Assembly: GCF_003334335.1 (NCBI RefSeq)
Contig: NZ_QOWQ01000047.1
DNA length: 31,056 nt
Direction: 5' to 3' (one strand)
Source: Escherichia coli
Lineage (GTDB): Bacteria; Pseudomonadota; Gammaproteobacteria; Enterobacterales; Enterobacteriaceae
The notes beneath the pieces are model-generated. The model was not told where the DNA came from, ran no database searches, and worked only from the letters and a program-made list of their open reading frames with translations. Made by a program: the position numbers and the translations under genes. How positions within the stretch are numbered: the stretch's first letter is position 1; each line of letters starts with the position of its first letter. Below, piece after piece: positions 4,385 through 19,712 of the stretch.

Positions 4385-5608
4385 TCATGAACACCATTTA
4401 AAATTACCATCATTAATATCATATAAAAATATATTTTTACTAAAACATGAATTGTATATATTTATTAGCTCAGGAAAATTATCAGGGTTCACCTTCAAAT
4501 TAACCTGAATGTTATGCTTAATTTCACCCAGTAGTTCTTCATGTGTGGATTTTATTATCCCATTATTATAATCGATAAATGCACACATGTTTTTTATGAA
4601 TTCAAAACCTTTTCCTGTATACAGTTTAATGAATGCCACCAGAGCAAACATTTCAAGATGTAGCCATAATGCTACGTTAGTTTTTTGCAAAGTATAAAAA
4701 ATTGAATTCGCCACTTTTTTACTTATTGCTCTTTTATACTGTGATCGAGCAAGATTCAGTAGCGGAAGCTCTCGTTCAATAAATGAATGTGAAAAGACTG
4801 GATAAATTGATGTCGGAAACCTTTCAGGCCTTATGATATTTTCTATTTCCACCATAAATCTATCCATAGAAAGAAAGTCACTTTCTTTTTTTATTCTGGT
4901 ATAGAGACCGCCTTTATTCCTTTCTGAGGTTTGTTTTCGTGCTATCCCCCCTAACAATTTCTCTAATTGTTTATTTATCTTCGTATAATTAAATACAACC
5001 ATTCTTCTTATCATCCTCGGAAGGATAATAATATCAGTGCTTGAATCACTTGAACGGCAATTATTATTTATCCATGCAACTTCAAGTTGCAGTATCGGAA
5101 CATTAACTTTTCTGGGGTGAATATCACTCTGATATCGTTTTTTGTATGCGTTTTCATTAAGATATTCTCTGCTGTAGAGAAACTTATAGCAATATAATCT
5201 GATAATATCTTTTATGTAAAATTTAAATAGTTCACCTGTAACAGATATATGTTTTCTGCTCAGTAACTCCTGTGTATTAAGCCATTCCCGTGACCGAAGC
5301 ACACCCTTGTGAAAACTTTTTCTTACTTGCTTTGAGGCACGGCATTGATGTAATATTTTTGCGTCCTCAATAATTCTCTTTCCCGTTTTATTTTTTGCAG
5401 CATCTCTTACTCCATAAAATATCTCCCGGTCCAGACTTTTGTCATATTTACTGATTATACGACAAATATTCCTGACCCGACGATTCTCTTTATTTCGCTT
5501 CCATAGCTTATAATGATCATCGCATAACCTTAAGGCATTTGCCTCATCAAATTCTGAAACAGGATTACTGCATTTTTTATTCCGACAAATACCTTTGTTT
5601 TTAGCCAT
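4385..5608 (-). CDS. Orphan hypothetical protein (407 aa), strongly AT-rich, N-terminal Cys/His cluster (possible zinc-binding or HNH-like finger); candidate cargo or defence gene
   Basis: Long uninterrupted ORF with ATG at 5606-5608 and a GGAAG-like Shine-Dalgarno upstream. Composition is visibly far more AT-rich than flanking DNA. N-terminus reads C-x4-C-x15-C-DD-H. No family recognised. Confidence 0.6.
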   Translation of the reverse strand: MAKNKGICRNKKCSNPVSEFDEANALRLCDDHYKLWKRNKENRRVRNICRIISKYDKSLDREIFYGVRDAAKNKTGKRIIEDAKILHQCRASKQVRKSFHKGVLRSREWLNTQELLSRKHISVTGELFKFYIKDIIRLYCYKFLYSREYLNENAYKKRYQSDIHPRKVNVPILQLEVAWINNNCRSSDSSTDIIILPRMIRRMVVFNYTKINKQLEKLLGGIARKQTSERNKGGLYTRIKKESDFLSMDRFMVEIENIIRPERFPTSIYPVFSHSFIERELPLLNLARSQYKRAISKKVANSIFYTLQKTNVALWLHLEMFALVAFIKLYTGKGFEFIKNMCAFIDYNNGIIKSTHEELLGEIKHNIQVNLKVNPDNFPELINIYNSCFSKNIFLYDINDGNFKWCS

Positions 5609-5661
5609 ACTCTTCTTCCCGTCAATGGAAAAATTTTCACACCCATATTACCTGAATGATA

Positions 5662-5684
5662 AACCGGATTAGTGTGATCCGGTT
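5662..5684. promoter_or_regulatory. Perfect palindrome AACCGGAT-N7-ATCCGGTT in the divergent intergenic region between the 407-aa gene and the GTPase gene; candidate operator
   Basis: Arms at 5662-5669 and 5677-5684 are exact reverse complements. It lies in the 100-bp gap between two divergently oriented start codons (5608 and 5709). Function is inferred. Confidence 0.3.
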
Positions 5685-5708
5685 CAGTGAAATCAACAGG
5701 ATACCGGT

Positions 5709-7214
5709 ATGCCATTCAGCAATTCTTCCCTCTCCGCGCAAGTGAAATCATATCTGACGTTTCTTCCTGAAGAAATACGCCAGAAAATCCTTGAACATCT
5801 CCACGGTGTTATTCATTACGAGCCCGTGATTGGCATTATGGGTAAATCCGGCACCGGCAAGAGCAGCCTGTGTAATGCCATTTTTCAGTCCCGTATCTGC
5901 GCCACGCATCCCCTGAACGGCTGCACCCGCCAGGCTCATCGTCTTACCCTGCAGCTCGGTGAACGCAGAATGACGCTGGTCGATCTGCCCGGCATTGGTG
6001 AAACACCGCAGCATGATCAGGAATACCGAGCGCTTTATCGTCAGTTACTGCCGGAACTGGATCTGATTATCTGGATCCTGCGGAGTGATGAACGTGCGTA
6101 TGCTGCCGATATTGCCATGCATCAGTTTTTACTGAATGAGGGCGCAGATCCCTCGCGCTTTCTGTTTGTTCTCAGCCATGCCGATCGCATGTTTCCTGCT
6201 GAAGAATGGAATGCCACAGAAAAATGCCCGTCCCGTCACCAGGAACTCTCACTGGCGACAGTAACAGCCCGGGTGGCCACCCTGTTCCCTTCATCATTTC
6301 CGGTACTCCCCGTAGCCGCGCCTGCAGGCTGGAACCTTCCAGCGCTGGTGTCACTGATGATCCACGCGCTGCCACCACAGGCAACCAGCGCAGTTTATTC
6401 ACATATCCGGGGGGAAAACCACTCTGAACAGGCCCGGAAACACGCACAACTGACTTTTGGTGAAACCATCGGGAAAAGTTTTGACGACGCCGTTGCCCGT
6501 TTCAGTTTTCCGCCCTGGATGTTACAGCTTCTGCGCAAAACCCGGGACCGCATTATCCACCTGCTGTTCACTGTGGCATCCTTCTCCACCTCCGCCGGTA
6601 ACTGGGCTGTCAAAAACGGCTGGTGCCAGACCATGACGGAAGATGGTCAGGCGCTGGTAATGCTGAAAAATGGCACGATTGGTATTACCGGCCTGATGCA
6701 GGGATGCCCGAATGGCGTACAGACGCTCCTGGGCAGCCGTATCAGTATTAACGGTAACCTGATCCCCACATCACAAATGTGTAATCAGCAGACGGGATTC
6801 AGGGCTGTTGAGGTGGAAGTCGGACAGGCGCCGGAAATGGTCAAAAAAGCCGTTCACTCCATAGCAGAGCGTGATGTGTCCGTTTTACAGGCATTTGGTG
6901 TACGAATGGAATTCACCCGCGGTGATATGCTGAAGGTCTGTCCGAAATTTGTCACATCACTTGCCGGTTTTTCCCCGAAACAGACACCCGCCATTAATAA
7001 AGATTCCGTCCTGCAGGCTGCCCGGCAGGCATACGCCCGGGAATATGACGAGGAAACAACAGAAACCGCTGATTTTGGCTCTTACGAAGTAAAAGGCAAT
7101 AAGGTTGAGTTTGAAGTGTTCAATCCTGAAGACCGTGCGTACGACAAAGTGACCGTCACGGTTGGTGCTGACGGTAATGCCACCGGTGCCAGCGTTGAAT
7201 TTATCGGAAAATAG
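5709..7214 (+). CDS. YeeP/YfjP/YkfA-family P-loop GTPase with an extra ~210-aa C-terminal extension
   Basis: Walker A motif GKSGTGKSS near residue 45 and a DLPG motif; the N-terminal ~290 aa resemble K-12 CP4 GTPases (about 287 aa, from memory). The ORF runs on to 501 aa. Confidence 0.7.
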
Positions 7215-7219
7215 CTGGT

Positions 7220-7453
7220 ATGTCGGACTGTCACCCTGTTTTATTGCCCGAAGGCCCTTTCTCACGCGAACAGGCGATGGCTGTCACAACAGCTTACCGC
7301 AATGTGCTTATTGAAGATGATCAGGGAACGCATTTCCGGCTGGTTATCCGCAATGCTGAAGGGCAGCTACGCTGGCGGTGCTGGAATTTTGAACCTGATG
7401 CCGGAAAACAGCTTAATGCGGGGCTCGCCAGTGAGGGAATTCTCAGGCAATAA
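7220..7453 (+). CDS. DUF905-like small protein (YkfF-like) of the CP4 island backbone
   Basis: 77-aa ORF with ...[19 protein letters not shown]...HFRLV...WNFEPDAG..., recalled as the DUF905 family. From memory only. Confidence 0.5.
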
Positions 7454-7551
7454 ACGTCTTCATTTCATCCATCAGGCCACGTCTTCTCCGGGAGACGTGG
7501 CTTTTTCATTTATTACACCAGTAAATCTTAACCACCAATAAGGAGCAAATC

Positions 7552-8370
7552 ATGCGATTAGCAAGTCGTTTTGGTTATGCGAACCAGATACGCCGTGACC
7601 GCCCCTTAACTCGCGAAGAACTGATGCAGGTCGTCCCCAGCGTATTCGGGGAAGATAAGCACACATCCAGAAGCGAGAACTATACCTGGATCCCCACCAT
7701 CACAGTGCTGGAAAGCCTGCAGCGGGAAGGTTTTCAGCCATTCTTTGCCTGCCAGACCCGCGTACGTGACCCGGGCCGCCGGGGGTATACCAAACACATG
7801 CTGCGTCTGCGCCGTGACGGGGAGATAAACGGACAACATGTCCCTGAAATCATCCTGCTGAACTCCCATGACGGTACCTCCAGCTACCAGATGCTGCCGG
7901 GTTACTTCAGGTTCGTCTGCCAGAACGGCTGCGTCTGTGGTCAGTCTCTGGGGGAAGTGCGTGTTCCGCACCGGGGAAATGTGGTGGACAGAGTCATTGA
8001 AGGGGCTTACGAGGTGGTGGGCGTGTTTGACCGGATTGAGGAAAAGCGTGATGCCATGCAGTCGCTGATTCTGCCGCCACCGGCACGCCAGGCGCTGGCA
8101 CAGGCGGCACTGACTTACCGTTATGGTGACGAACATCAGCCCGTCACCACCGCCGACATTCTGACGCCACGACGCCGGGAGGATTACGGTAAGGACCTGT
8201 GGAGTGCTTATCAGACCATCCAGGAAAATATGCTGAAAGGCGGGATTTCCGGTCGCAGCGCTAAAGGAAAACGTATCCACACCCGTGCCATTCACAGCAT
8301 CGACACGGACATTAAGCTCAATCGCGCATTGTGGGTGATGGCAGAAACGCTGCTGGAGAGCATGCGCTGA
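7552..8370 (+). CDS. DUF932-family protein (YafZ/YfjQ-like)
   Basis: 272-aa ORF; length and position after the GTPase match CP4 island DUF932 genes. The antisense 275-aa ORF (7606-8433) was rejected. Confidence 0.6.
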   Translation: MRLASRFGYANQIRRDRPLTREELMQVVPSVFGEDKHTSRSENYTWIPTITVLESLQREGFQPFFACQTRVRDPGRRGYTKHMLRLRRDGEINGQHVPEIILLNSHDGTSSYQMLPGYFRFVCQNGCVCGQSLGEVRVPHRGNVVDRVIEGAYEVVGVFDRIEEKRDAMQSLILPPPARQALAQAALTYRYGDEHQPVTTADILTPRRREDYGKDLWSAYQTIQENMLKGGISGRSAKGKRIHTRAIHSIDTDIKLNRALWVMAETLLESMR

Positions 8371-8461
8371 TGCTGTTTCCCTGAAAGTGCAGCCCTGACT
8401 CACGTCTGTACCAGTCCCCAGGCATTCTTCCATTCATTTACTTTTTATAAGGAATCATCTC

Positions 8462-8947
8462 ATGACAACCTTTTCGCATAGCTCCACCACACCTTCTGTT
8501 TCCGTAACCACTGCATCAGGGAATAACCAGTCTCAACTGGTTGCCACCATAGTCCCTGATGAACAGCGCATCAGCTTCTGGCCGCAGCACTTTGGCCTCA
8601 TTCCACAGTGGGTGACCCTGGAGCCCCGTGTCTTCGGCTGGATGGACCGTCTGTGTGAAGACTACTGCGGTGGTATCTGGAATCTGTACACCCTGAATAA
8701 CGGCGGCGCATTTATGGCGCCCGAACCGGATGAAGATGATGACGAAACATGGGTACTGTTCAATGCCATGAACAGTAACCGCGCTGAAATGAGCCCGGAA
8801 GCCGCCGGCATTGCAGCCTGTCTGATGACGTACAGCCATCATGCCTGTCGTATGGAGTGTTATGCCATGACGGTCCATTATTACCGGCTGCGGGATTATG
8901 CCCTGCAGCATCCGGAATGCAGCGCCATTATGCGCATCATTGACTGA
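8462..8947 (+). CDS. Antirestriction protein, KlcA/ArdB-like (YfjX/YafX family)
   Basis: 161-aa ORF with an acidic stretch EPDEDDDE and the conserved position immediately upstream of the RadC-like gene. Confidence 0.65.
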   Translation: MTTFSHSSTTPSVSVTTASGNNQSQLVATIVPDEQRISFWPQHFGLIPQWVTLEPRVFGWMDRLCEDYCGGIWNLYTLNNGGAFMAPEPDEDDDETWVLFNAMNSNRAEMSPEAAGIAACLMTYSHHACRMECYAMTVHYYRLRDYALQHPECSAIMRIID

Positions 8948-8961
8948 AAGGGGCCGGAACA

Positions 8962-9438
8962 ATGCAACAGATTTCCTTTCTGCCCGGAGAAATGACGCCC
9001 GGTGAGCGCAGCCTCATTCAGCGGGCCCTGAAAACCCTGGACCGCCATCTTTATGAACCCGGCGTGGCCTTCACCTCCACGCATGCGGCACGGGAGTGGC
9101 TGATTCTGAACATGGCGGGACTGGAGCGGGAAGAGTTCCGGGTGCTGTATCTGAACAACCAGAATCAGCTGATTGCCGGTGAAACCCTTTTCACCGGCAC
9201 CATCAACCGCACGGAAGTCCATCCCCGGGAAGTGATTAAACGCGCCCTGTACCACAATGCCGCTGCCGTGGTACTGGCGCACAATCACCCGTCCGGTGAA
9301 GTCACACCCAGTAAGGCAGACCGGCTTATCACCGAACGTCTGGTACAGGCACTGGGCCTGGTGGATATCCGGGTGCCGGACCATCTGATAGTCGGTGGCA
9401 GCCAGGTTTTCTCCTTTGCCGAACATGGTCTGCTTTAA
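8962..9438 (+). CDS. RadC-like JAB/MPN-domain protein (YeeS/YkfG/YfjY family)
   Basis: 158-aa ORF containing the JAMM-type motif HNHPSG (...VVLAHNHPSGEVTPSKAD...). Confidence 0.75.
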   Translation: MQQISFLPGEMTPGERSLIQRALKTLDRHLYEPGVAFTSTHAAREWLILNMAGLEREEFRVLYLNNQNQLIAGETLFTGTINRTEVHPREVIKRALYHNAAAVVLAHNHPSGEVTPSKADRLITERLVQALGLVDIRVPDHLIVGGSQVFSFAEHGLL

Positions 9439-9500
9439 CCCGTCACAACCACATCACACCTGTTTTCACTTTTATCTTCTGTCTTCAGAGGTATCACACT

Positions 9501-9801: not shown

Positions 9802-10170
9802 GTGTCAGACACATTCTCCGGGACAACGCATCCCGATGACAATCACGACCGCCCCTGGTGGGGACTGCCCTGCACCGTGACGCCCTGTTTTGGTTCCCGT
9901 CTGGTACAGGAAGGCAACCGGTTGCATTACCTTGCCGACCGCGCCGGTATCAGAGGGCGGTTCAGCGACGCGGATTCGTACCACCTGGACCAGGCCTTTC
10001 CGCTGCTGATGAAACAACTGGAACTCATGCTCACCAGCGGTGAACTGAATCCCCGCCATCAGCATACCGTCACGCTGTATGCAAAAGGGCTGACCTGCGC
10101 AGCCGACACCCTCGGCAGTTGTGGCTACGTTTATATGGCTGTTTATCCGACGCCCGAAACGAAAAAGTAA
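9802..10170 (+). CDS. Type IV antitoxin of the CbeA/YeeU/YafW/YfjZ family
   Basis: 122-aa ORF directly upstream of a CbtA-like toxin gene; sequence pattern recalled as YeeU-like. Confidence 0.7.
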   Translation: MSDTFSGTTHPDDNHDRPWWGLPCTVTPCFGSRLVQEGNRLHYLADRAGIRGRFSDADSYHLDQAFPLLMKQLELMLTSGELNPRHQHTVTLYAKGLTCAADTLGSCGYVYMAVYPTPETKK

Positions 10171-10259
10171 CTCTCCAGAATAACCTTCTGCTCCGGCCTG
10201 GTGCTTTCACCACGCCACTTTTCCATTTTTCATCTCTGCATATCAGGAAAATCTTCAGT

Positions 10260-10637
10260 ATGAAAACATTACCTGTATTACCCGGGCTGGCGGCCAGTTC
10301 ACGCCCGTCTCCGGTTGAAATCTGGCAGACACTGCTCACCCGACTGCTGGATCAGCACTACGGCCTTACGCTGAATGACACACCATTCGCTGATGAACGT
10401 GTGATTGAGCAGCATATTGAGGCAGGCATTTCACTGTGTGATGCGGTGAACTTTCTCGTTGAAAAATACGCGCTGGTACGTACCGACCAGCCGGGATTCA
10501 GCGCCTGTACCCGTTCTCAGTTAATAAACAGTATTGATATCCTCCGGGCACGCCGGGCAACCGGCCTGATGACACGCGACAACTACAGAACGGTAAATAA
10601 CATTACCCTGGGTAAACATCCGGGGGCGAAACAATGA
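10260..10637 (+). CDS. Type IV toxin of the CbtA/YeeV/YkfI/YpjF family
   Basis: The track ORF starts at 10119, but the start consistent with the family is the ATG at 10260 (MKTLPVLPGLAAS...), giving about 125 aa and leaving a 90-bp gap after the antitoxin stop. Confidence 0.7.
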   Translation: MKTLPVLPGLAASSRPSPVEIWQTLLTRLLDQHYGLTLNDTPFADERVIEQHIEAGISLCDAVNFLVEKYALVRTDQPGFSACTRSQLINSIDILRARRATGLMTRDNYRTVNNITLGKHPGAKQ

Positions 10638-11056
10638 AACAGGCCCTGACGCTGGAAGCCGACAGCATTAATGCGCAGGCGCTGAACATGGGGCGCATTG
10701 TCGTTGACGTCGATGGTATTGAGCTCGCTGAACTGATTAACAAAGTCGCTGAAAACGGTTATTCACTCCGCGTGGTGGATGAACGTGACGCTACCGAAAC
10801 ACCGGCGACTTCTGCCAGCCCTCATCAGTTGCCGGAAGACAATACAGTGATACAGAGCGTGATGCCATTAACCACTGAAACAGCGCTGGATATCCTCATT
10901 GCGTGGCTGCAGGACAATATCGACTGCGAATCGGGAATTATCTTTGACAACGATGAGGATAAAACGGATTCGGCAGCACTGTTGCCCTGTATCGAACAGG
11001 CCCGGGAGGATGTCCGGACTCTTCGTCATCTGCAGCTTCTGCACCAGAACCGGTAA
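10634..11056 (+). CDS. YeeW-like protein (unknown function) downstream of the toxin
   Basis: 140-aa ORF whose ATG overlaps the toxin stop in an ATGA junction at 10634-10637; acidic composition. Confidence 0.45.
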   Translation: MKQALTLEADSINAQALNMGRIVVDVDGIELAELINKVAENGYSLRVVDERDATETPATSASPHQLPEDNTVIQSVMPLTTETALDILIAWLQDNIDCESGIIFDNDEDKTDSAALLPCIEQAREDVRTLRHLQLLHQNR

Positions 11057-12093: not shown

Positions 12094-12115
12094 TTCGATT
12101 CCGAGTCCGGCACCA
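12094..12115 (+). other. pheU: 3'-terminal 22-nt fragment of tRNA-Phe (pheU) without the rest of the gene: island attachment-site repeat (attR-type junction)
   Basis: TTCGATTCCGAGTCCGGCACCA matches the 3' end of E. coli tRNA-Phe (...GGTTCGATTCCGAGTCCGGGCACCA) with one G missing. The upstream bases are AT-rich island DNA, not tRNA. Confidence 0.6.
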
Positions 12116-12731: not shown

Positions 12732-14270
12732 ATGCAACAACCTGTAGTTCGCGTTGGCGAATGGCTTGTTACTCCGTCCATAAACCAAATTAGCCGCAAT
12801 GGGCGTCAACTTACCCTTGAGCCGAGATTAATCGATCTTCTGGTTTTCTTTGCTCAACACAGTGGCGAAGTACTTAGCAGGGATGAACTTATCGATAATG
12901 TCTGGAAGAGAAGTATTGTCACCAATCACGTTGTGACGCAGAGTATCTCAGAACTACGTAAGTCATTAAAAGATAATGATGAAGATAGTCCTGTCTATAT
13001 CGCTACTGTACCAAAGCGCGGCTATAAATTAATGGTGCCGGTTATCTGGTACAGCGAAGAAGAGGGAGAGGAAATAATGCTATCTTCGCCTCCCCCTATA
13101 CCAGAGGCGGTTCCTGCCACAGATTCTCCCTCCCACAGTCTTAACATTCAAAACACCGCAACGCCACCTGAACAATCCCCAGTTAAAAGCAAACGATTCA
13201 CTACCTTTTGGGTATGGTTTTTTTTCCTGTTGTCGTTAGGTATCTGTGTAGCACTGGTAGCGTTTTCAAGTCTTGATACACGTCTTCCTATGAGCAAATC
13301 GCGTATTTTGCTCAATCCACGCGATATTGACATTAATATGGTAAATAAAAGTTGTAACAGCTGGAGTTCCCCGTATCAGCTCTCTTACGCGATAGGCGTG
13401 GGTGATTTGGTGGCGACATCACTTAACACCTTCTCCACCTTTATGGTGCATGACAAAATCAACTACAACATTGATGAACCGAGCAGTTCCGGTAAAACAT
13501 TATCTATTGCGTTTGTTAATCAGCGCCAATACCGTGCTCAACAATGCTTTATGTCGATAAAATTGGTAGACAATGCAGATGGTTCAACCATGCTGGATAA
13601 ACGTTATGTCATCACTAACGGTAATCAGCTGGCGATTCAAAATGATTTACTGGAGAGTTTATCAAAAGCGTTAAACCAACCGTGGCCACAACGAATGCAG
13701 GAGACGCTCCAGAAAATTTTGCCGCATCGTGGTGCGTTATTAACTAATTTTTATCAGGCACATGATTATTTACTGCATGGCGATGATAAATCATTGAACC
13801 GTGCCAGTGAATTATTAGGTGAGATTGTTCAATCATCCCCAGAATTTACCTACGCGAGAGCAGAAAAAGCATTAGTTGATATCGTGCGCCATTCTCAACA
13901 TCCTTTAGATGAAAAACAATTAGCAGCACTGAACACAGAAATAGATAACATTGTTACACTGCCGGAATTGAACAACCTGTCCATTATATATCAAATAAAA
14001 GCGGTCAGTGCTCTGGTAAAAGGTAAAACAGATGAGTCTTACCAGGCGATAAATACTGGCATTGATCTTGAAATGTCCTGGCTAAATTATGTGTTGCTTG
14101 GCAAGGTTTATGAAATGAAGGGGATGAACCGGGAAGCAGCTGATGCATATCTCACCGCCTTTAATTTACGCCCAGGGGCAAACACCCTTTACTGGATTGA
14201 AAATGGTATATTCCAGACTTCTGTTCCTTATGTTGTACCTTATCTCGACAAATTTCTTGCTTCAGAATAA
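12732..14270 (+). CDS. cadC: CadC, membrane-integrated ToxR-like transcriptional activator of the cad operon
   Basis: 512-aa translation recognised as CadC (MQQPVVRVGEWLVTPSINQISRNGRQLTLEPRLIDLL...), with the expected synteny upstream of cadBA. Confidence 0.93.
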   Translation: MQQPVVRVGEWLVTPSINQISRNGRQLTLEPRLIDLLVFFAQHSGEVLSRDELIDNVWKRSIVTNHVVTQSISELRKSLKDNDEDSPVYIATVPKRGYKLMVPVIWYSEEEGEEIMLSSPPPIPEAVPATDSPSHSLNIQNTATPPEQSPVKSKRFTTFWVWFFFLLSLGICVALVAFSSLDTRLPMSKSRILLNPRDIDINMVNKSCNSWSSPYQLSYAIGVGDLVATSLNTFSTFMVHDKINYNIDEPSSSGKTLSIAFVNQRQYRAQQCFMSIKLVDNADGSTMLDKRYVITNGNQLAIQNDLLESLSKALNQPWPQRMQETLQKILPHRGALLTNFYQAHDYLLHGDDKSLNRASELLGEIVQSSPEFTYARAEKALVDIVRHSQHPLDEKQLAALNTEIDNIVTLPELNNLSIIYQIKAVSALVKGKTDESYQAINTGIDLEMSWLNYVLLGKVYEMKGMNREAADAYLTAFNLRPGANTLYWIENGIFQTSVPYVVPYLDKFLASE

Positions 14271-14634
14271 GTAACTCCGGGTTGATTTATGCTCGGAAAT
14301 ATTTGTTGTTGAGTTTTTGTATGTTCCTGTTGGTATAATATGTTGCGGCAATTTATTTGCCGCATAATTTTTATTACATAAATTTAACCAGAGAATGTCA
14401 CGCAACCCATTGTAAACATTAAATGTTTATCTTTTCATGATATCAACTTGCGATCCTGATGTGTTAATAAAAAACCTCAAGTTCTCACTTACAGAAACTT
14501 TTGTGTTATTTCACCTAATCTTTAGGATTAATCCTTTTTTCGTGAGTAATCTTATCGCCAGTTTGGTCTGGTCAGGAAATAGTTATACATCATGACCCGG
14601 ACTCCAAATTCAAAAATGAAATTAGGAGAAGAGC
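14271..14634 (+). promoter_or_regulatory. cadC-cadB intergenic region containing the cadBA promoter (Pcad) and CadC binding region
   Basis: Position only: established knowledge places Pcad and the CadC sites upstream of cadB. Individual sites were not mapped. Confidence 0.45.
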
Positions 14635-15969
14635 ATGAGTTCTGCCAAGAAGATCGGGCTATTTGCCTGTACCGGTGTTGTTGCCGGTAATATGATGGGG
14701 AGCGGTATTGCATTATTACCTGCGAACCTAGCAAGTATCGGTGGTATTGCTATCTGGGGTTGGATTATCTCTATTATTGGTGCAATGTCGCTGGCGTATG
14801 TATATGCCCGACTGGCAACAAAAAACCCGCAACAAGGTGGCCCAATTGCTTATGCCGGAGAAATTTCCCCTGCATTTGGTTTTCAGACAGGTGTTCTTTA
14901 TTACCATGCTAACTGGATTGGTAACCTGGCGATTGGTATTACCGCTGTATCTTATCTTTCCACCTTCTTCCCAGTATTAAATGATCCTGTTCCGGCGGGT
15001 ATCGCCTGTATTGCTATCGTCTGGGTATTTACCTTTGTAAATATGCTCGGCGGTACTTGGGTAAGCCGTTTAACCACTATTGGTCTGGTGCTGGTTCTTA
15101 TTCCTGTGGTGATGACTGCTATTGTTGGCTGGCATTGGTTTGATGCGGCAACTTATGCAGCTAACTGGAATACTGCGGATACCACTGATGGTCATGCGAT
15201 CATTAAAAGTATTCTGCTCTGCCTGTGGGCCTTCGTGGGTGTTGAATCCGCAGCTGTAAGTACTGGTATGGTTAAAAACCCGAAACGTACCGTTCCGCTG
15301 GCAACCATGCTGGGTACTGGTTTAGCAGGTATTGTTTACATCGCTGCGACTCAGGTGCTTTCCGGTATGTATCCGTCTTCTGTAATGGCGGCTTCCGGTG
15401 CTCCGTTTGCAATCAGTGCTTCAACTATCCTCGGTAACTGGGCTGCGCCGCTGGTTTCTGCATTCACCGCCTTTGCGTGCCTGACTTCTCTGGGCTCCTG
15501 GATGATGTTGGTAGGCCAGGCAGGTGTACGTGCCGCTAACGACGGTAACTTCCCGAAAGTTTATGGTGAAGTCGACAGCAACGGTATTCCGAAAAAAGGT
15601 CTGCTGCTGGCTGCAGTGAAAATGACTGCCCTGATGATCCTTATCACTCTGATGAACTCTGCCGGTGGTAAAGCATCTGACCTGTTCGGTGAACTGACCG
15701 GTATCGCAGTACTGCTGACTATGCTGCCGTATTTCTACTCTTGCGTTGACCTGATTCGTTTTGAAGGCGTTAACATCCGCAACTTTGTCAGCCTGATCTG
15801 CTCTGTACTGGGTTGCGTGTTCTGCTTCATCGCGCTGATGGGCGCAAGCTCCTTCGAGCTGGCAGGTACCTTCATCGTCAGCCTGATTATCCTGATGTTC
15901 TACGCTCGCAAAATGCACGAGCGCCAGAGCCACTCAATGGATAACCACACCGCGTCTAACGCACATTAA
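14635..15969 (+). CDS. cadB: CadB, lysine/cadaverine antiporter
   Basis: 444-aa polytopic membrane protein (MSSAKKIGLFACTGVVAGNMMGSGIALLPANLAS...) between cadC and cadA. Confidence 0.93.
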   Translation: MSSAKKIGLFACTGVVAGNMMGSGIALLPANLASIGGIAIWGWIISIIGAMSLAYVYARLATKNPQQGGPIAYAGEISPAFGFQTGVLYYHANWIGNLAIGITAVSYLSTFFPVLNDPVPAGIACIAIVWVFTFVNMLGGTWVSRLTTIGLVLVLIPVVMTAIVGWHWFDAATYAANWNTADTTDGHAIIKSILLCLWAFVGVESAAVSTGMVKNPKRTVPLATMLGTGLAGIVYIAATQVLSGMYPSSVMAASGAPFAISASTILGNWAAPLVSAFTAFACLTSLGSWMMLVGQAGVRAANDGNFPKVYGEVDSNGIPKKGLLLAAVKMTALMILITLMNSAGGKASDLFGELTGIAVLLTMLPYFYSCVDLIRFEGVNIRNFVSLICSVLGCVFCFIALMGASSFELAGTFIVSLIILMFYARKMHERQSHSMDNHTASNAH

Positions 15970-16039
15970 TTAAAAGTATTTTCCGAGGCTCCTCCTTTCA
16001 TTTTGTCCCATGTGTTGGGAGGGGCCTTTTTTACCTGGA

Positions 16040-18196
16040 GATATGACTATGAACGTTATTGCAATATTGAATCACATGGGGGTTTATTTTAAAGAAGAAC
16101 CCATCCGTGAACTTCATCGCGCGCTTGAACGTCTGAACTTCCAGATTGTTTACCCGAACGACCGTGACGACTTATTAAAACTGATCGAAAACAATGCGCG
16201 TCTGTGCGGCGTTATTTTTGACTGGGATAAATATAATCTCGAGCTGTGCGAAGAAATTAGCAAAATGAACGAGAACCTGCCGTTGTACGCGTTCGCTAAT
16301 ACGTATTCCACTCTCGATGTAAGCCTGAATGACCTGCGTTTACAGATTAGCTTCTTTGAATATGCGCTGGGTGCTGCTGAAGATATTGCTAATAAGATCA
16401 AGCAGACCACTGACGAATATATCAACACTATTCTGCCTCCGCTGACTAAAGCACTGTTTAAATATGTTCGTGAAGGTAAATATACTTTCTGTACTCCTGG
16501 TCACATGGGCGGTACTGCATTCCAGAAAAGCCCGGTAGGTAGCCTGTTCTATGATTTCTTTGGTCCGAATACCATGAAATCTGATATTTCCATTTCAGTA
16601 TCTGAACTGGGTTCTCTGCTGGATCACAGTGGTCCACACAAAGAAGCAGAACAGTATATCGCTCGCGTCTTTAACGCAGACCGCAGCTACATGGTGACCA
16701 ACGGTACTTCCACTGCGAACAAAATTGTTGGTATGTACTCTGCTCCAGCAGGCAGCACCATTCTGATTGACCGTAACTGCCACAAATCGCTGACCCACCT
16801 GATGATGATGAGCGATGTTACGCCAATCTATTTCCGCCCGACCCGTAACGCTTACGGTATTCTTGGTGGTATCCCACAGAGTGAATTCCAGCACGCTACC
16901 ATTGCTAAGCGCGTGAAAGAAACACCAAACGCAACCTGGCCGGTACATGCTGTAATTACCAACTCTACCTATGATGGTCTGCTGTACAACACCGACTTCA
17001 TCAAGAAAACACTGGATGTGAAATCCATCCACTTTGACTCCGCGTGGGTGCCTTACACCAACTTCTCACCGATTTACGAAGGTAAATGCGGTATGAGCGG
17101 TGGCCGTGTAGAAGGGAAAGTGATTTACGAAACCCAGTCCACTCACAAACTGCTGGCGGCGTTCTCTCAGGCTTCCATGATCCACGTTAAAGGTGACGTA
17201 AACGAAGAAACCTTTAACGAAGCCTACATGATGCACACCACCACTTCTCCGCACTACGGTATCGTGGCGTCCACTGAAACCGCTGCGGCGATGATGAAAG
17301 GCAATGCAGGTAAGCGTCTGATCAACGGTTCTATTGAACGTGCGATCAAATTCCGTAAAGAGATCAAACGTCTGAGAACGGAATCTGATGGCTGGTTCTT
17401 TGATGTATGGCAGCCGGATCATATCGATACGACTGAATGCTGGCCGCTGCGTTCTGACAGCACCTGGCACGGCTTCAAAAACATCGATAACGAGCACATG
17501 TATCTTGACCCGATCAAAGTCACCCTGCTGACTCCGGGGATGGAAAAAGACGGCACCATGAGCGACTTTGGTATTCCGGCCAGCATCGTGGCGAAATACC
17601 TCGACGAACATGGCATCGTTGTTGAGAAAACCGGTCCGTATAACCTGCTGTTCCTGTTCAGCATCGGTATCGATAAGACCAAAGCACTGAGCCTGCTGCG
17701 TGCTCTGACTGACTTTAAACGTGCGTTCGACCTGAACCTGCGTGTGAAAAACATGCTGCCGTCTCTGTATCGTGAAGATCCTGAATTCTATGAAAACATG
17801 CGTATTCAGGAACTGGCTCAGAATATCCACAAACTGATTGTTCACCACAATCTGCCGGATCTGATGTATCGCGCATTTGAAGTGCTGCCGACGATGGTAA
17901 TGACTCCGTATGCTGCATTCCAGAAAGAGCTGCACGGTATGACCGAAGAAGTTTACCTCGACGAAATGGTAGGTCGTATTAACGCCAATATGATCCTTCC
18001 GTACCCGCCGGGAGTTCCTCTGGTAATGCCGGGTGAAATGATCACCGAAGAAAGCCGTCCGGTTCTGGAGTTCCTGCAGATGCTGTGTGAAATCGGCGCT
18101 CACTATCCGGGCTTTGAAACCGATATTCACGGTGCATACCGTCAGGCTGATGGCCGCTATACCGTTAAGGTATTGAAAGAAGAAAGCAAAAAATAA
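16040..18196 (+). CDS. cadA: CadA, inducible lysine decarboxylase
   Basis: Translation MNVIAILNHMGVYFKEEPIRELHRALERLNFQIVYPNDRDD... The track ORF begins at 16010, but the ATG at 16040 gives the expected ~715-aa CadA N-terminus. Confidence 0.93.
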   Translation, partial: DMTMNVIAILNHMGVYFKEEPIRELHRALERLNFQIVYPNDRDDLLKLIENNARLCGVIFDWDKYNLELCEEISKMNENLPLYAFANTYSTLDVSLNDLRLQISFFEYALGAAEDIANKIKQTTDEYINTILPPLTKALFKYVREGKYTFCTPGHMGGTAFQKSPVGSLFYDFFGPNTMKSDISISVSELGSLLDHSGPHKEAEQYIARVFNADRSYMVTNGTSTANKIVGMYSAPAGSTILIDRNCHKSLTHLMMMSDVTPIYFRPTRNAYGILGGIPQSEFQHATIAKRVKETPNATWPVHAVITNSTYDGLLYNTDFIKKTLDVKSIHFDSAWVPYTNFSPIYEGKCGMSGGRVEGKVIYETQSTHKLLAAFSQASMIHVKGDVNEETFNEAYMMHTTTSPHYGIVASTETAAAMMKGNAGKRLINGSIERAIKFRKEIKRLRTESDGWFFDVWQPDHIDTTECWPLRSDSTWHGFKNIDNEHMYLDPIKVTLLTPGMEKDGTMSDFGIPASIVAKYLDEHGIVVEKTGPYNLLFLFSIGIDKTKALSLLRALTDFKRAFDLNLRVKNMLPSLYREDPEFYENMRIQELAQNIHKLIVHHNLPDLMYRAFEVLPTMVMTPYAAFQKELHGMTEEVYLDEMVGRINANMILPYPPGVPLVMPGEMITEESRPVLEFLQMLCEIGAHYPGFETDIHGAYRQADGRYTVKVLKEESKK

Positions 18197-18209
18197 TTAG
18201 CTCGTACAA

Positions 18210-18237
18210 GGGAAGTGGCTTGCCACTTCCCTTTTTT
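18210..18237 (+). terminator. Intrinsic terminator after cadA
   Basis: GGGAAGTGG-cttg-CCACTTCCC hairpin (9-bp GC-rich stem) followed by TTTTTT. Confidence 0.65.
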
Positions 18238-18254
18238 GCTCATAAGGAGAACAC

Positions 18255-19712
18255 ATGAAAACACCCTCACAGCCGCGCGCGATATACTATATCGTGGCGA
18301 TCCAAATCTGGGAGTACTTCAGTTTTTACGGCATGCGTGCCTTACTCATTCTCTATCTCACCCATCAGCTTGGTTTTGATGATAACCATGCCATCAGCCT
18401 GTTCAGCGCATATGCTTCTCTGGTTTACGTTACCCCTATTCTCGGCGGCTGGCTTGCCGACCGCCTGCTCGGCAACCGCACTGCAGTGATTGCCGGCGCG
18501 CTGTTAATGACCCTTGGCCATGTGGTGCTGGGTATTGATACAAATTCAACCTTTAGCCTGTATCTGGCGCTGGCAATCATTATTTGTGGCTACGGTTTAT
18601 TCAAATCAAACATCAGCTGTTTGCTTGGCGAGCTCTACGACGAGAACGATCATCGACGTGATGGCGGTTTTTCGCTGCTGTATGCTGCGGGCAATATCGG
18701 TTCTATCGCAGCCCCAATCGCCTGCGGCCTGGCTGCTCAGTGGTATGGATGGCATGTTGGCTTTGCCCTTGCGGGTGGCGGCATGTTTATCGGTTTGTTG
18801 ATTTTCTTAAGCGGTCATCGTCATTTCCAGTCCACACGTAGTATGGATAAAAAAGCGCTCACTAGTGTCAAATTTGCCTTACCAGTATGGAGCTGGTTAG
18901 TGGTGATGCTCTGTTTAGCCCCAGTATTTTTTACTCTGCTGCTGGAGAACGACTGGTCCGGATATTTGCTGGCGATCGTTTGCCTCATTGCCGCACAAAT
19001 CATTGCCCGCATGATGATCAAATTCCCCGAACATCGCCGTGCTCTTTGGCAAATTGTATTGTTGATGTTTGTCGGGACATTGTTCTGGGTACTGGCACAA
19101 CAGGGCGGCAGTACCATCAGCTTGTTTATCGATCGCTTTGTGAATCGTCAGGCATTCAATATTGAAGTACCTACAGCACTATTCCAGTCGGTGAATGCAA
19201 TTGCGGTGATGCTCGCTGGGGTTGTACTGGCCTGGCTGGCGTCGCCAGAAAGCCGCGGCAACTCAACATTGCGCGTCTGGCTGAAGTTTGCCTTTGGCTT
19301 ACTGCTGATGGCTTGTGGCTTTATGTTGTTGGCATTTGATGCCCGACATGCAGCGGCTGACGGTCAAGCGTCAATGGGCGTGATGATATCCGGGCTGGCG
19401 CTAATGGGCTTTGCCGAACTCTTTATTGACCCGGTGGCGATTGCGCAAATCACGCGTCTGAAAATGTCTGGCGTATTAACCGGGATTTATATGCTGGCAA
19501 CAGGCGCGGTCGCCAACTGGCTGGCAGGCGTCGTGGCACAGCAGACGACAGAGTCGCAAATTAGCGGTATGGCAATTGCAGCTTACCAGCGATTCTTTTC
19601 TCAGATGGGAGAGTGGACGTTGGCTTGTGTCGCGATCATCGTCGTATTGGCCTTTGCTACCCGTTTTCTGTTTAGCACGCCGACGAATATGATACAGGAG
19701 AGCAACGATTAA
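18255..19712 (+). CDS. dtpC: DtpC (YjdL), proton-dependent di/tripeptide transporter (POT family)
   Basis: 485-aa membrane protein ([36 protein letters not shown]...) between cadA and lysU. Confidence 0.88.

Follow-up and report, generated by a model that had tools for sequence, protein, structure and literature searches.

An in-frame chimera of a YfjP-family GTPase gene and a neighbouring gene for a putatively exported protein in a CP4-like island of Escherichia coli

The GTPases YfjP, YkfA and YeeP belong to a family encoded on CP4-type cryptic prophage-like islands, in a setting that includes genes for DUF905, DUF932, antirestriction, RadC, DUF987 and CbeA/CbtA proteins. Members of this family (NCBI name ‘YfjP family GTPase’, Pfam MMR_HSR1) are of modest and rather uniform size; the K-12 protein YfjP measures 287 aa, in agreement with the ~287 aa given for it in the initial annotation of the locus described here, and amongst the cluster representatives of the family, the 120 with the best scores range only from 276 to 322 aa. 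A literature search on YfjP/YeeP returned nothing relevant to fusions. The present locus lies on E. coli contig QOWQ01000047.1 (assembly GCA_003334335.1), the whole of which forms the 31,056-nt stretch analysed herein (the window), and it harbours a family member of 501 aa, deposited as RCQ57045.1 and HAH9022117.1 under the name ‘hypothetical protein’. The initial annotation, made from the letters of the sequence, had drawn this ORF in full and had regarded it as a fusion, with the proviso that ~500 aa might prove to be the common architecture of the family. The ORF is borne out, with its ATG start and all 501 residues, whilst the lengths of the 120 representatives speak against the proviso. 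As detailed below, the ORF is an accidental chimera of two island genes and not an evolved domain architecture.

Residues 1–286 of the chimera are those of a normal YfjP-family GTPase. The G1 (GKSGTGKS, residue 45), G3 (DLPG, residue 92) and G4-like (SHAD, residue 156) motifs occur in the right order, the P-loop and DLPG being located within the first ~290 residues exactly as first noticed, and Pfam MMR_HSR1 (PF01926) matches residues 41–142 with an E-value of 2.9e-14. Alignment with K-12 YfjP, which the initial annotation had proposed, is collinear over the full length of that protein, pairing residues 12–292 of the chimera with residues 10–285 of YfjP (36 % identity, E 4e-57). It stops 2 residues short of the YfjP C-terminus, and the normal length of the family therefore ends at approximately residue 290. 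Similarly, the 294-aa cluster representative P0002 is 96 % identical to the chimera but covers 58 % of it as query, and clustering at 90 % places the 501-aa protein in a group totalling 1,222 members; a length of 294 aa is shared by the representative of this group and by 9 of the 13 further members listed, the remaining four being shorter, mostly partial sequences. At the DNA level, bases 5709–6250 are 100 % identical to the corresponding islands of strains P393-F10 (L001) and ZYB39 (L010), and bases 6251–6566 are 99.4 % identical to the latter. What distinguishes the chimera from its family is the absence of the C-terminal 8 residues (VTLWDRLF, for example) and of the stop codon, together with the addition of 215 foreign residues (287–501); the single-domain size of ~280–300 aa is thus exceeded because a neighbouring gene has been joined on. 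The extension had originally been estimated at ~210 aa, close to the measured value, and the tail sequence quoted at that time was correct. PADLOC also matched the GTPase to LeoBC (E 1e-4, with no stretch passing alone), but too weakly for this to be used. The coordinates of the chimera, its parts and the related loci are collected in Table 1.

Table 1. Location of the chimeric ORF, its component parts, its neighbours and comparable genes in other islands (positions refer to the window unless a locus is named)
Feature	Location	Strand	Basis or remark
Chimeric ORF, 501 aa	5709..7214	+	ATG start; 1,506 nt
GTPase-derived part, residues 1–286 of a 294-aa YfjP-family GTPase	5709..6566	+	DNA identity, Pfam, YfjP alignment
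Junction, exact 7-nt repeat CCTGCTG present in both parental genes	6560..6566	+	Three-way comparison
Tail, residues 287–501, equal to residues 11–225 of a 225-aa, putatively exported hypothetical protein	6567..7211	+	Translation, DNA identity
Native signal-peptide remnant (putative), residues 287–296, A-x-A-G motif kept	6567..6596	+	Family alignment, by eye
407-aa hypothetical gene, usual upstream neighbour of the GTPase in regulator islands	4385..5608	-	99.7 % identical to L001 and L010
DUF905 gene, usual downstream neighbour of the 225-aa gene	7220..7453	+	
GTPase of L001 (strain P393-F10), 294 aa	L001:4001-4885		
Regulator of L001, 226 aa	L001:5088-5768		Pfam HTH_11 + WYL
Hypothetical protein of L001, 225 aa	L001:5919-6596		Homologous to window 6567-7214
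P0024, GTPase with DUF932 C-terminus, in frame			16-nt overlap at the join, relative to intact island L012
P0023, GTPase with antirestriction protein C-terminus, in frame			7-nt overlap at the join, relative to L012
P0039, GTPase with RadC C-terminus, in frame			8-nt overlap at the join, relative to L012
Loci of the three other rare GTPase chimeras	L014:2501-3460, L016:2501-3469, L015:2501-3331		

The tail of the chimera derives from a second and quite separate family, consisting of free-standing proteins of 225–229 aa that are found in Escherichia, Klebsiella, Citrobacter, Enterobacter and Lelliottia (e.g. WP_161620543.1, WP_072652851.1 and WP_053291273.1), with two 90 %-identity clusters alone containing 3,360 and 702 member sequences. 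A domain search of residues 290–501, also put forward by the initial annotation, gave no family match in Pfam or NCBIfam, and Pfam, NCBIfam, PHROGs, PADLOC and PDB sequences yielded no hit when queried with the tail or the homologous free-standing protein. Structural prediction for the 225-aa protein suggests a two-domain fold with weak cystatin/PepSY- and IalB/lipocalin-like similarities, the comparisons involved being to PepSY/NTF2-like folds and to enterobacterial lipoproteins and lipocalin- or META-like proteins. Full-length members all start in a signal-peptide-like manner, with M-(K/N)-x-basic, a hydrophobic core, A-x-A and GNW (features read by eye from the alignment rather than by a dedicated predictor), and four cysteines are invariant in the family alignment. 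Based on these features, the family would appear to comprise exported proteins with disulfides.

The chimera retains much of this second family, its tail being collinear with the mature region, keeping all four cysteines (C306, C333, C358 and C411, corresponding to family C30, C57, C82 and C135) and displaying DNA identities of 99.4 and 98.6 % to the free-standing genes of the intact MB98 island (L012) and of L001, respectively. It also shares the DUF905 gene as downstream neighbour, and since this gene follows directly, the tail occupies its native genomic position. Unlike the free-standing members, however, it lacks the first 10 signal-peptide residues (MNTRTLFPLL), the RBS and the start codon, and can consequently be made only as a C-terminal passenger of the GTPase. 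The remnant of the putative signal peptide is now internal, with 11 GTPase-derived residues preceding it. Elsewhere, the 225-aa gene is itself found in other fusions: P0031 (281 aa) possesses a foreign C-terminus after ...VGADG, and in P0166 (260 aa; Q8VR59, ‘putative intergenic-region protein’) a RadC domain is accompanied by a stretch sharing 98 % identity with the 225-aa family.

With regard to the unfused state, a megablast search of 5,426 complete E. coli genomes was run with the ORF, and in 1,821 of these one place covers at least 80 % of it, with up to 6 places per genome for this ORF. Amongst the best records listed, the ORF is matched as two pieces spread over ~2,593–2,596 bp, and the genes beneath these pieces are annotated as a GTPase family protein, a helix-turn-helix transcriptional regulator and a hypothetical protein. 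The initial annotation had pointed to relatives of the island as the place to look for a separate tail gene, and in ~1,820 complete E. coli genomes it is indeed present as such. Most of the genomes with both halves display a layout of GTPase, HTH_11+WYL regulator and 225-aa gene, exemplified by L001, where the neighbours are as in the window: the oppositely oriented 407-aa gene lies upstream, and downstream come genes for DUF905, DUF932, antirestriction, RadC, DUF987 and YeeU/CbtA. A second layout, present in 151 genomes, has no regulator, and 118 bp (L002:6115-6232) separate the GTPase from the 225-aa gene. Compared with the regulator layout, 1,090 bp are missing from the window, and compared with the spacer layout, 175 bp. 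In ZYB39, a regulator is again located downstream of the GTPase, and is followed by a different, 168-aa signal-peptide-like protein in place of the 225-aa one.

The island in question is CP4-like and is located at a tRNA-Phe site next to cadCBA. A 22-nt match (TTCGATTCCGAGTCCGGCACCA) at 12094-12115, which we take to be the 3′ end of tRNA-Phe, delimits the island on the right, and beyond it follow chromosomal cadC, cadB, cadA and a dipeptide permease gene (12732-19712); no complete tRNA gene was found in the window by ARAGORN. Two of the ORFs drawn mechanically in the region deserve caution. The first, a 61-aa antisense ORF (5530-5715, - strand) overlapping the GTPase start, is doubtful, and the second, a 172-aa TTG-started ORF (10119-10637, + strand), is not to be trusted as drawn, for it contains a ~125-aa CbtA toxin gene beginning at an internal ATG (MKTLPVLPG...).

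A three-way comparison of the window with the two parental genes places the join at the sequence CCTGCTG, which encodes H-L-L near the C-terminus of the GTPase and P-L-L within the signal peptide of the 225-aa protein. This exact repeat is contained within an imperfect one of ~17 nt that reaches to ~6576, CCTGCTGnTCAC(AC)TGTGG. In relatives, the 3′ end of the GTPase gene around the join reads ...ATCCACCTGCTGGTCACACTGTGG... and the signal-peptide codons of the 225-aa gene read ...TTCCCCTGCTGTTCACTGTGGCATCC..., the window having ...ATCCACCTGCTGTTCACTGTGGCATCC... at the corresponding position; the fused allele could be sought with the 40-mer GACCGCATTATCCACCTGCTGTTCACTGTGGCATCCTTCT. The ungapped match to L001 extends on the left side to approximately ORF position 865 and on the right side down to 852, and the two BLAST pieces overlap at query 852-868/872. 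The GTPase and 225-aa genes of L001 are offset by 5919-4001 = 1,918 nt, or 3n+1, and the missing length is likewise 3n+1, be it 1,090 or 175 bp; this agreement accounts for the continuation of the reading frame. A frameshift origin of the 501-aa ORF was rejected, as the join is a clean deletion in which both native frames are kept.

The two-gene state, the breakpoint, the microhomology, the rarity of the fused allele and its identity across samples are all directly observed, and the event behind them was very probably a single microhomology-mediated deletion, or illegitimate recombination, within the CP4-like island. The starting state would have been a gene for a 294-aa GTPase, followed by either a WYL-type HTH regulator gene or a 118-bp spacer, and then by the gene for the 225-aa, putatively Sec-exported protein. 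The DNA between the CCTGCTG near the GTPase 3′ end and that in the signal-peptide codons would then have dropped out, with the WYL regulator gene lost as well in the case of a regulator-layout parent, and the reading frame would have run on through the join into the 225-aa gene. Of the two origins originally envisaged, a deletion fusing two genes is thus upheld by halves that are separate and collinear in relatives and by a join within a short direct repeat, whilst a new effector or sensor domain is not, given that the tail corresponds to residues 11–225 of a free-standing, putatively exported protein whose signal-peptide start has been lost. Probes of 317, 894 and 5,116 bp revealed, amongst the complete genomes, no parent in which both sides of the junction reach 99 % identity, which leaves it ambiguous from which parent the DNA was deleted and whether 1,090 or 175 bp were lost; for 4385-9500 as a whole, the top-ranking relatives show the regulator layout and are longer by ~1.09 kb.

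A possible, albeit rather unlikely, alternative to a simple internal deletion is a crossover between two island lineages, for example by homology-facilitated illegitimate recombination, in which homology downstream would provide the anchor and the upstream join would fall at CCTGCTG. Such a route would accommodate the change in nearest relatives at or near the junction, as 4385-6566 is 99.4–100 % identical to the ZYB39 island and 93–95 % to that of MB98, whilst 6567-9500 is 98.1–99.4 % identical to the MB98 island and 7215-9500 only 93.5 % to L001. It would also be in keeping with the several such islands that E. coli genomes carry, at the up to six places mentioned above. These islands are mosaic in general, however, and even the last 316 bp of the GTPase part differ from its first 542 bp in their affinity to L001, so that a plain deletion in a parent already mosaic fits equally well; moreover, the tail is too conserved (97.7–99.4 % identity to all relatives) for the switch to be precisely placed. 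Whether by crossover or by deletion, the product is the same accidental chimera.

The fused allele is rare. A 201-bp probe across the junction was found in one piece in none of the 5,426 complete E. coli genomes, with every listed full-coverage match being in two pieces and no record reaching 99 % identity. Seven contigs are recorded as carrying exactly this 501-aa protein, and six of them were retrieved; two are from NCBI assemblies (the window contig, and DABCZV010000080.1 of GCA_012738575.1) and four from Logan assemblies (SRR1815430, SRR3824134, SRR27904302 and SRR30938087). In all six, the 1,506-nt ORF displays no differences whatsoever, with 0–3 differences in the flanks. This look-up was exact, meaning that variants one residue apart would escape it and could sit inside 90 % clusters. 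The fused copies found are all nucleotide-identical, and a diverged fusion conserved across strains, species or lineages was not amongst them. Judged by these sequences, the fusion most likely arose once and has been inherited within one lineage. As the allele occurs in runs with distant accession numbers, it appears to be stably inherited and at the very least tolerated, and it may still be of some use.

In terms of consequence, the chimera would be translated from the GTPase's own start and would be expected to stay in the cytoplasm. With its G motifs intact, GTP binding may persist, but the tail, deprived of an N-terminal signal peptide and hence of the probable periplasmic disulfides, has probably lost its native function. 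The allele most likely represents neutral or mildly deleterious gene decay rather than a new function.

It is very improbable that the fusion is instead an evolved functional architecture, in which the tail would serve as a new C-terminal effector or sensor domain, or the GTPase would be tethered to a membrane. One might cite in its favour that the frame is open over 501 codons, that the G motifs are intact, that the allele persists in several sequenced isolates and that the junction resembles a signal peptide; yet a single allele is on record, identical in the six retrieved contigs and absent from the 5,426 complete genomes, and the tail is a truncated neighbour protein in its native genomic position. 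Furthermore, an in-frame outcome is expected by chance in about one of three cases, and the same GTPase has also been fused to unrelated downstream genes. As for the junction itself, this segment is signal-like in having a positive stretch from the GTPase (RKTRDR), an 11-residue hydrophobic core and TSA-G; since this core matches the native one in hydrophobicity (Kyte–Doolittle 2.14 versus 2.06), the complete loss of export is something that we infer. A 19-residue stretch around the junction nevertheless scores ~+5.8 on a biological hydrophobicity scale, far too polar for a transmembrane helix. It is accordingly very doubtful that this rebuilt signal- or anchor-like segment inserts the chimera in the inner membrane, or that it allows partial export and cleavage. 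If it did, the outcome would be a membrane-tethered island GTPase and/or a mature periplasmic protein that is still released, and hence a natural neofunctionalised topology gained in one step. Least likely of all, to the point of being scarcely credible, is that the ORF arose as an artefact of assembly or sequencing in a single draft genome. The window is admittedly a 31-kb short-read draft contig, and E. coli carries multiple copies of the island family, but junction and ORF recur unchanged in two separate NCBI assemblies and at least four Logan-assembled runs, and the repeat at the join (only 7 nt exact and ~17 nt imperfect, with assembler k-mers being longer than this) is not one at which repeat collapse is expected, such that the identical allele in six contigs and the short repeat together argue for a real sequence.

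The accidental chimera is not the only one of its kind in this island backbone, as three further rare fusions of the GTPase, P0024, P0023 and P0039, which stand amongst the family's best-scoring cluster representatives, are listed in Table 1. These resemble the window chimera in joining a 5′ portion of the GTPase gene to an island gene further downstream across an overlap of 7–16 nt, but differ in having other partners and larger deletions (~1.9–2.8 kb relative to L012), and in being on record for one contig each, versus seven for the window allele. Recurrent short-repeat deletions therefore appear to erode the island backbone. Separately, the window contains a second read-through ORF of 140 aa (10634..11056, + strand), which runs in frame from ~55 N-terminal DUF5983 residues into DUF957; its counterpart in intact islands (L003) consists of separate genes of 162 and 65 aa, and for the equivalent layout of L002, RefSeq gives a DUF5983 pseudogene and a DUF957 CDS.

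The event described herein belongs to a well-known type, in which a mobile island in decay gains an in-frame chimeric ORF through deletion at a short repeat. For the purposes of annotation, the ORF is a deletion-derived chimera or pseudogene and not a new GTPase architecture, and it is unfit as a seed for ‘Rosetta stone’ inference linking the GTPase with the exported protein. The fusion does, however, draw attention to a widespread family of 225-aa, putatively exported proteins that is without any annotation. Together, the four fusions document the decay, by short-repeat deletion, of an island backbone that is very common in E. coli.
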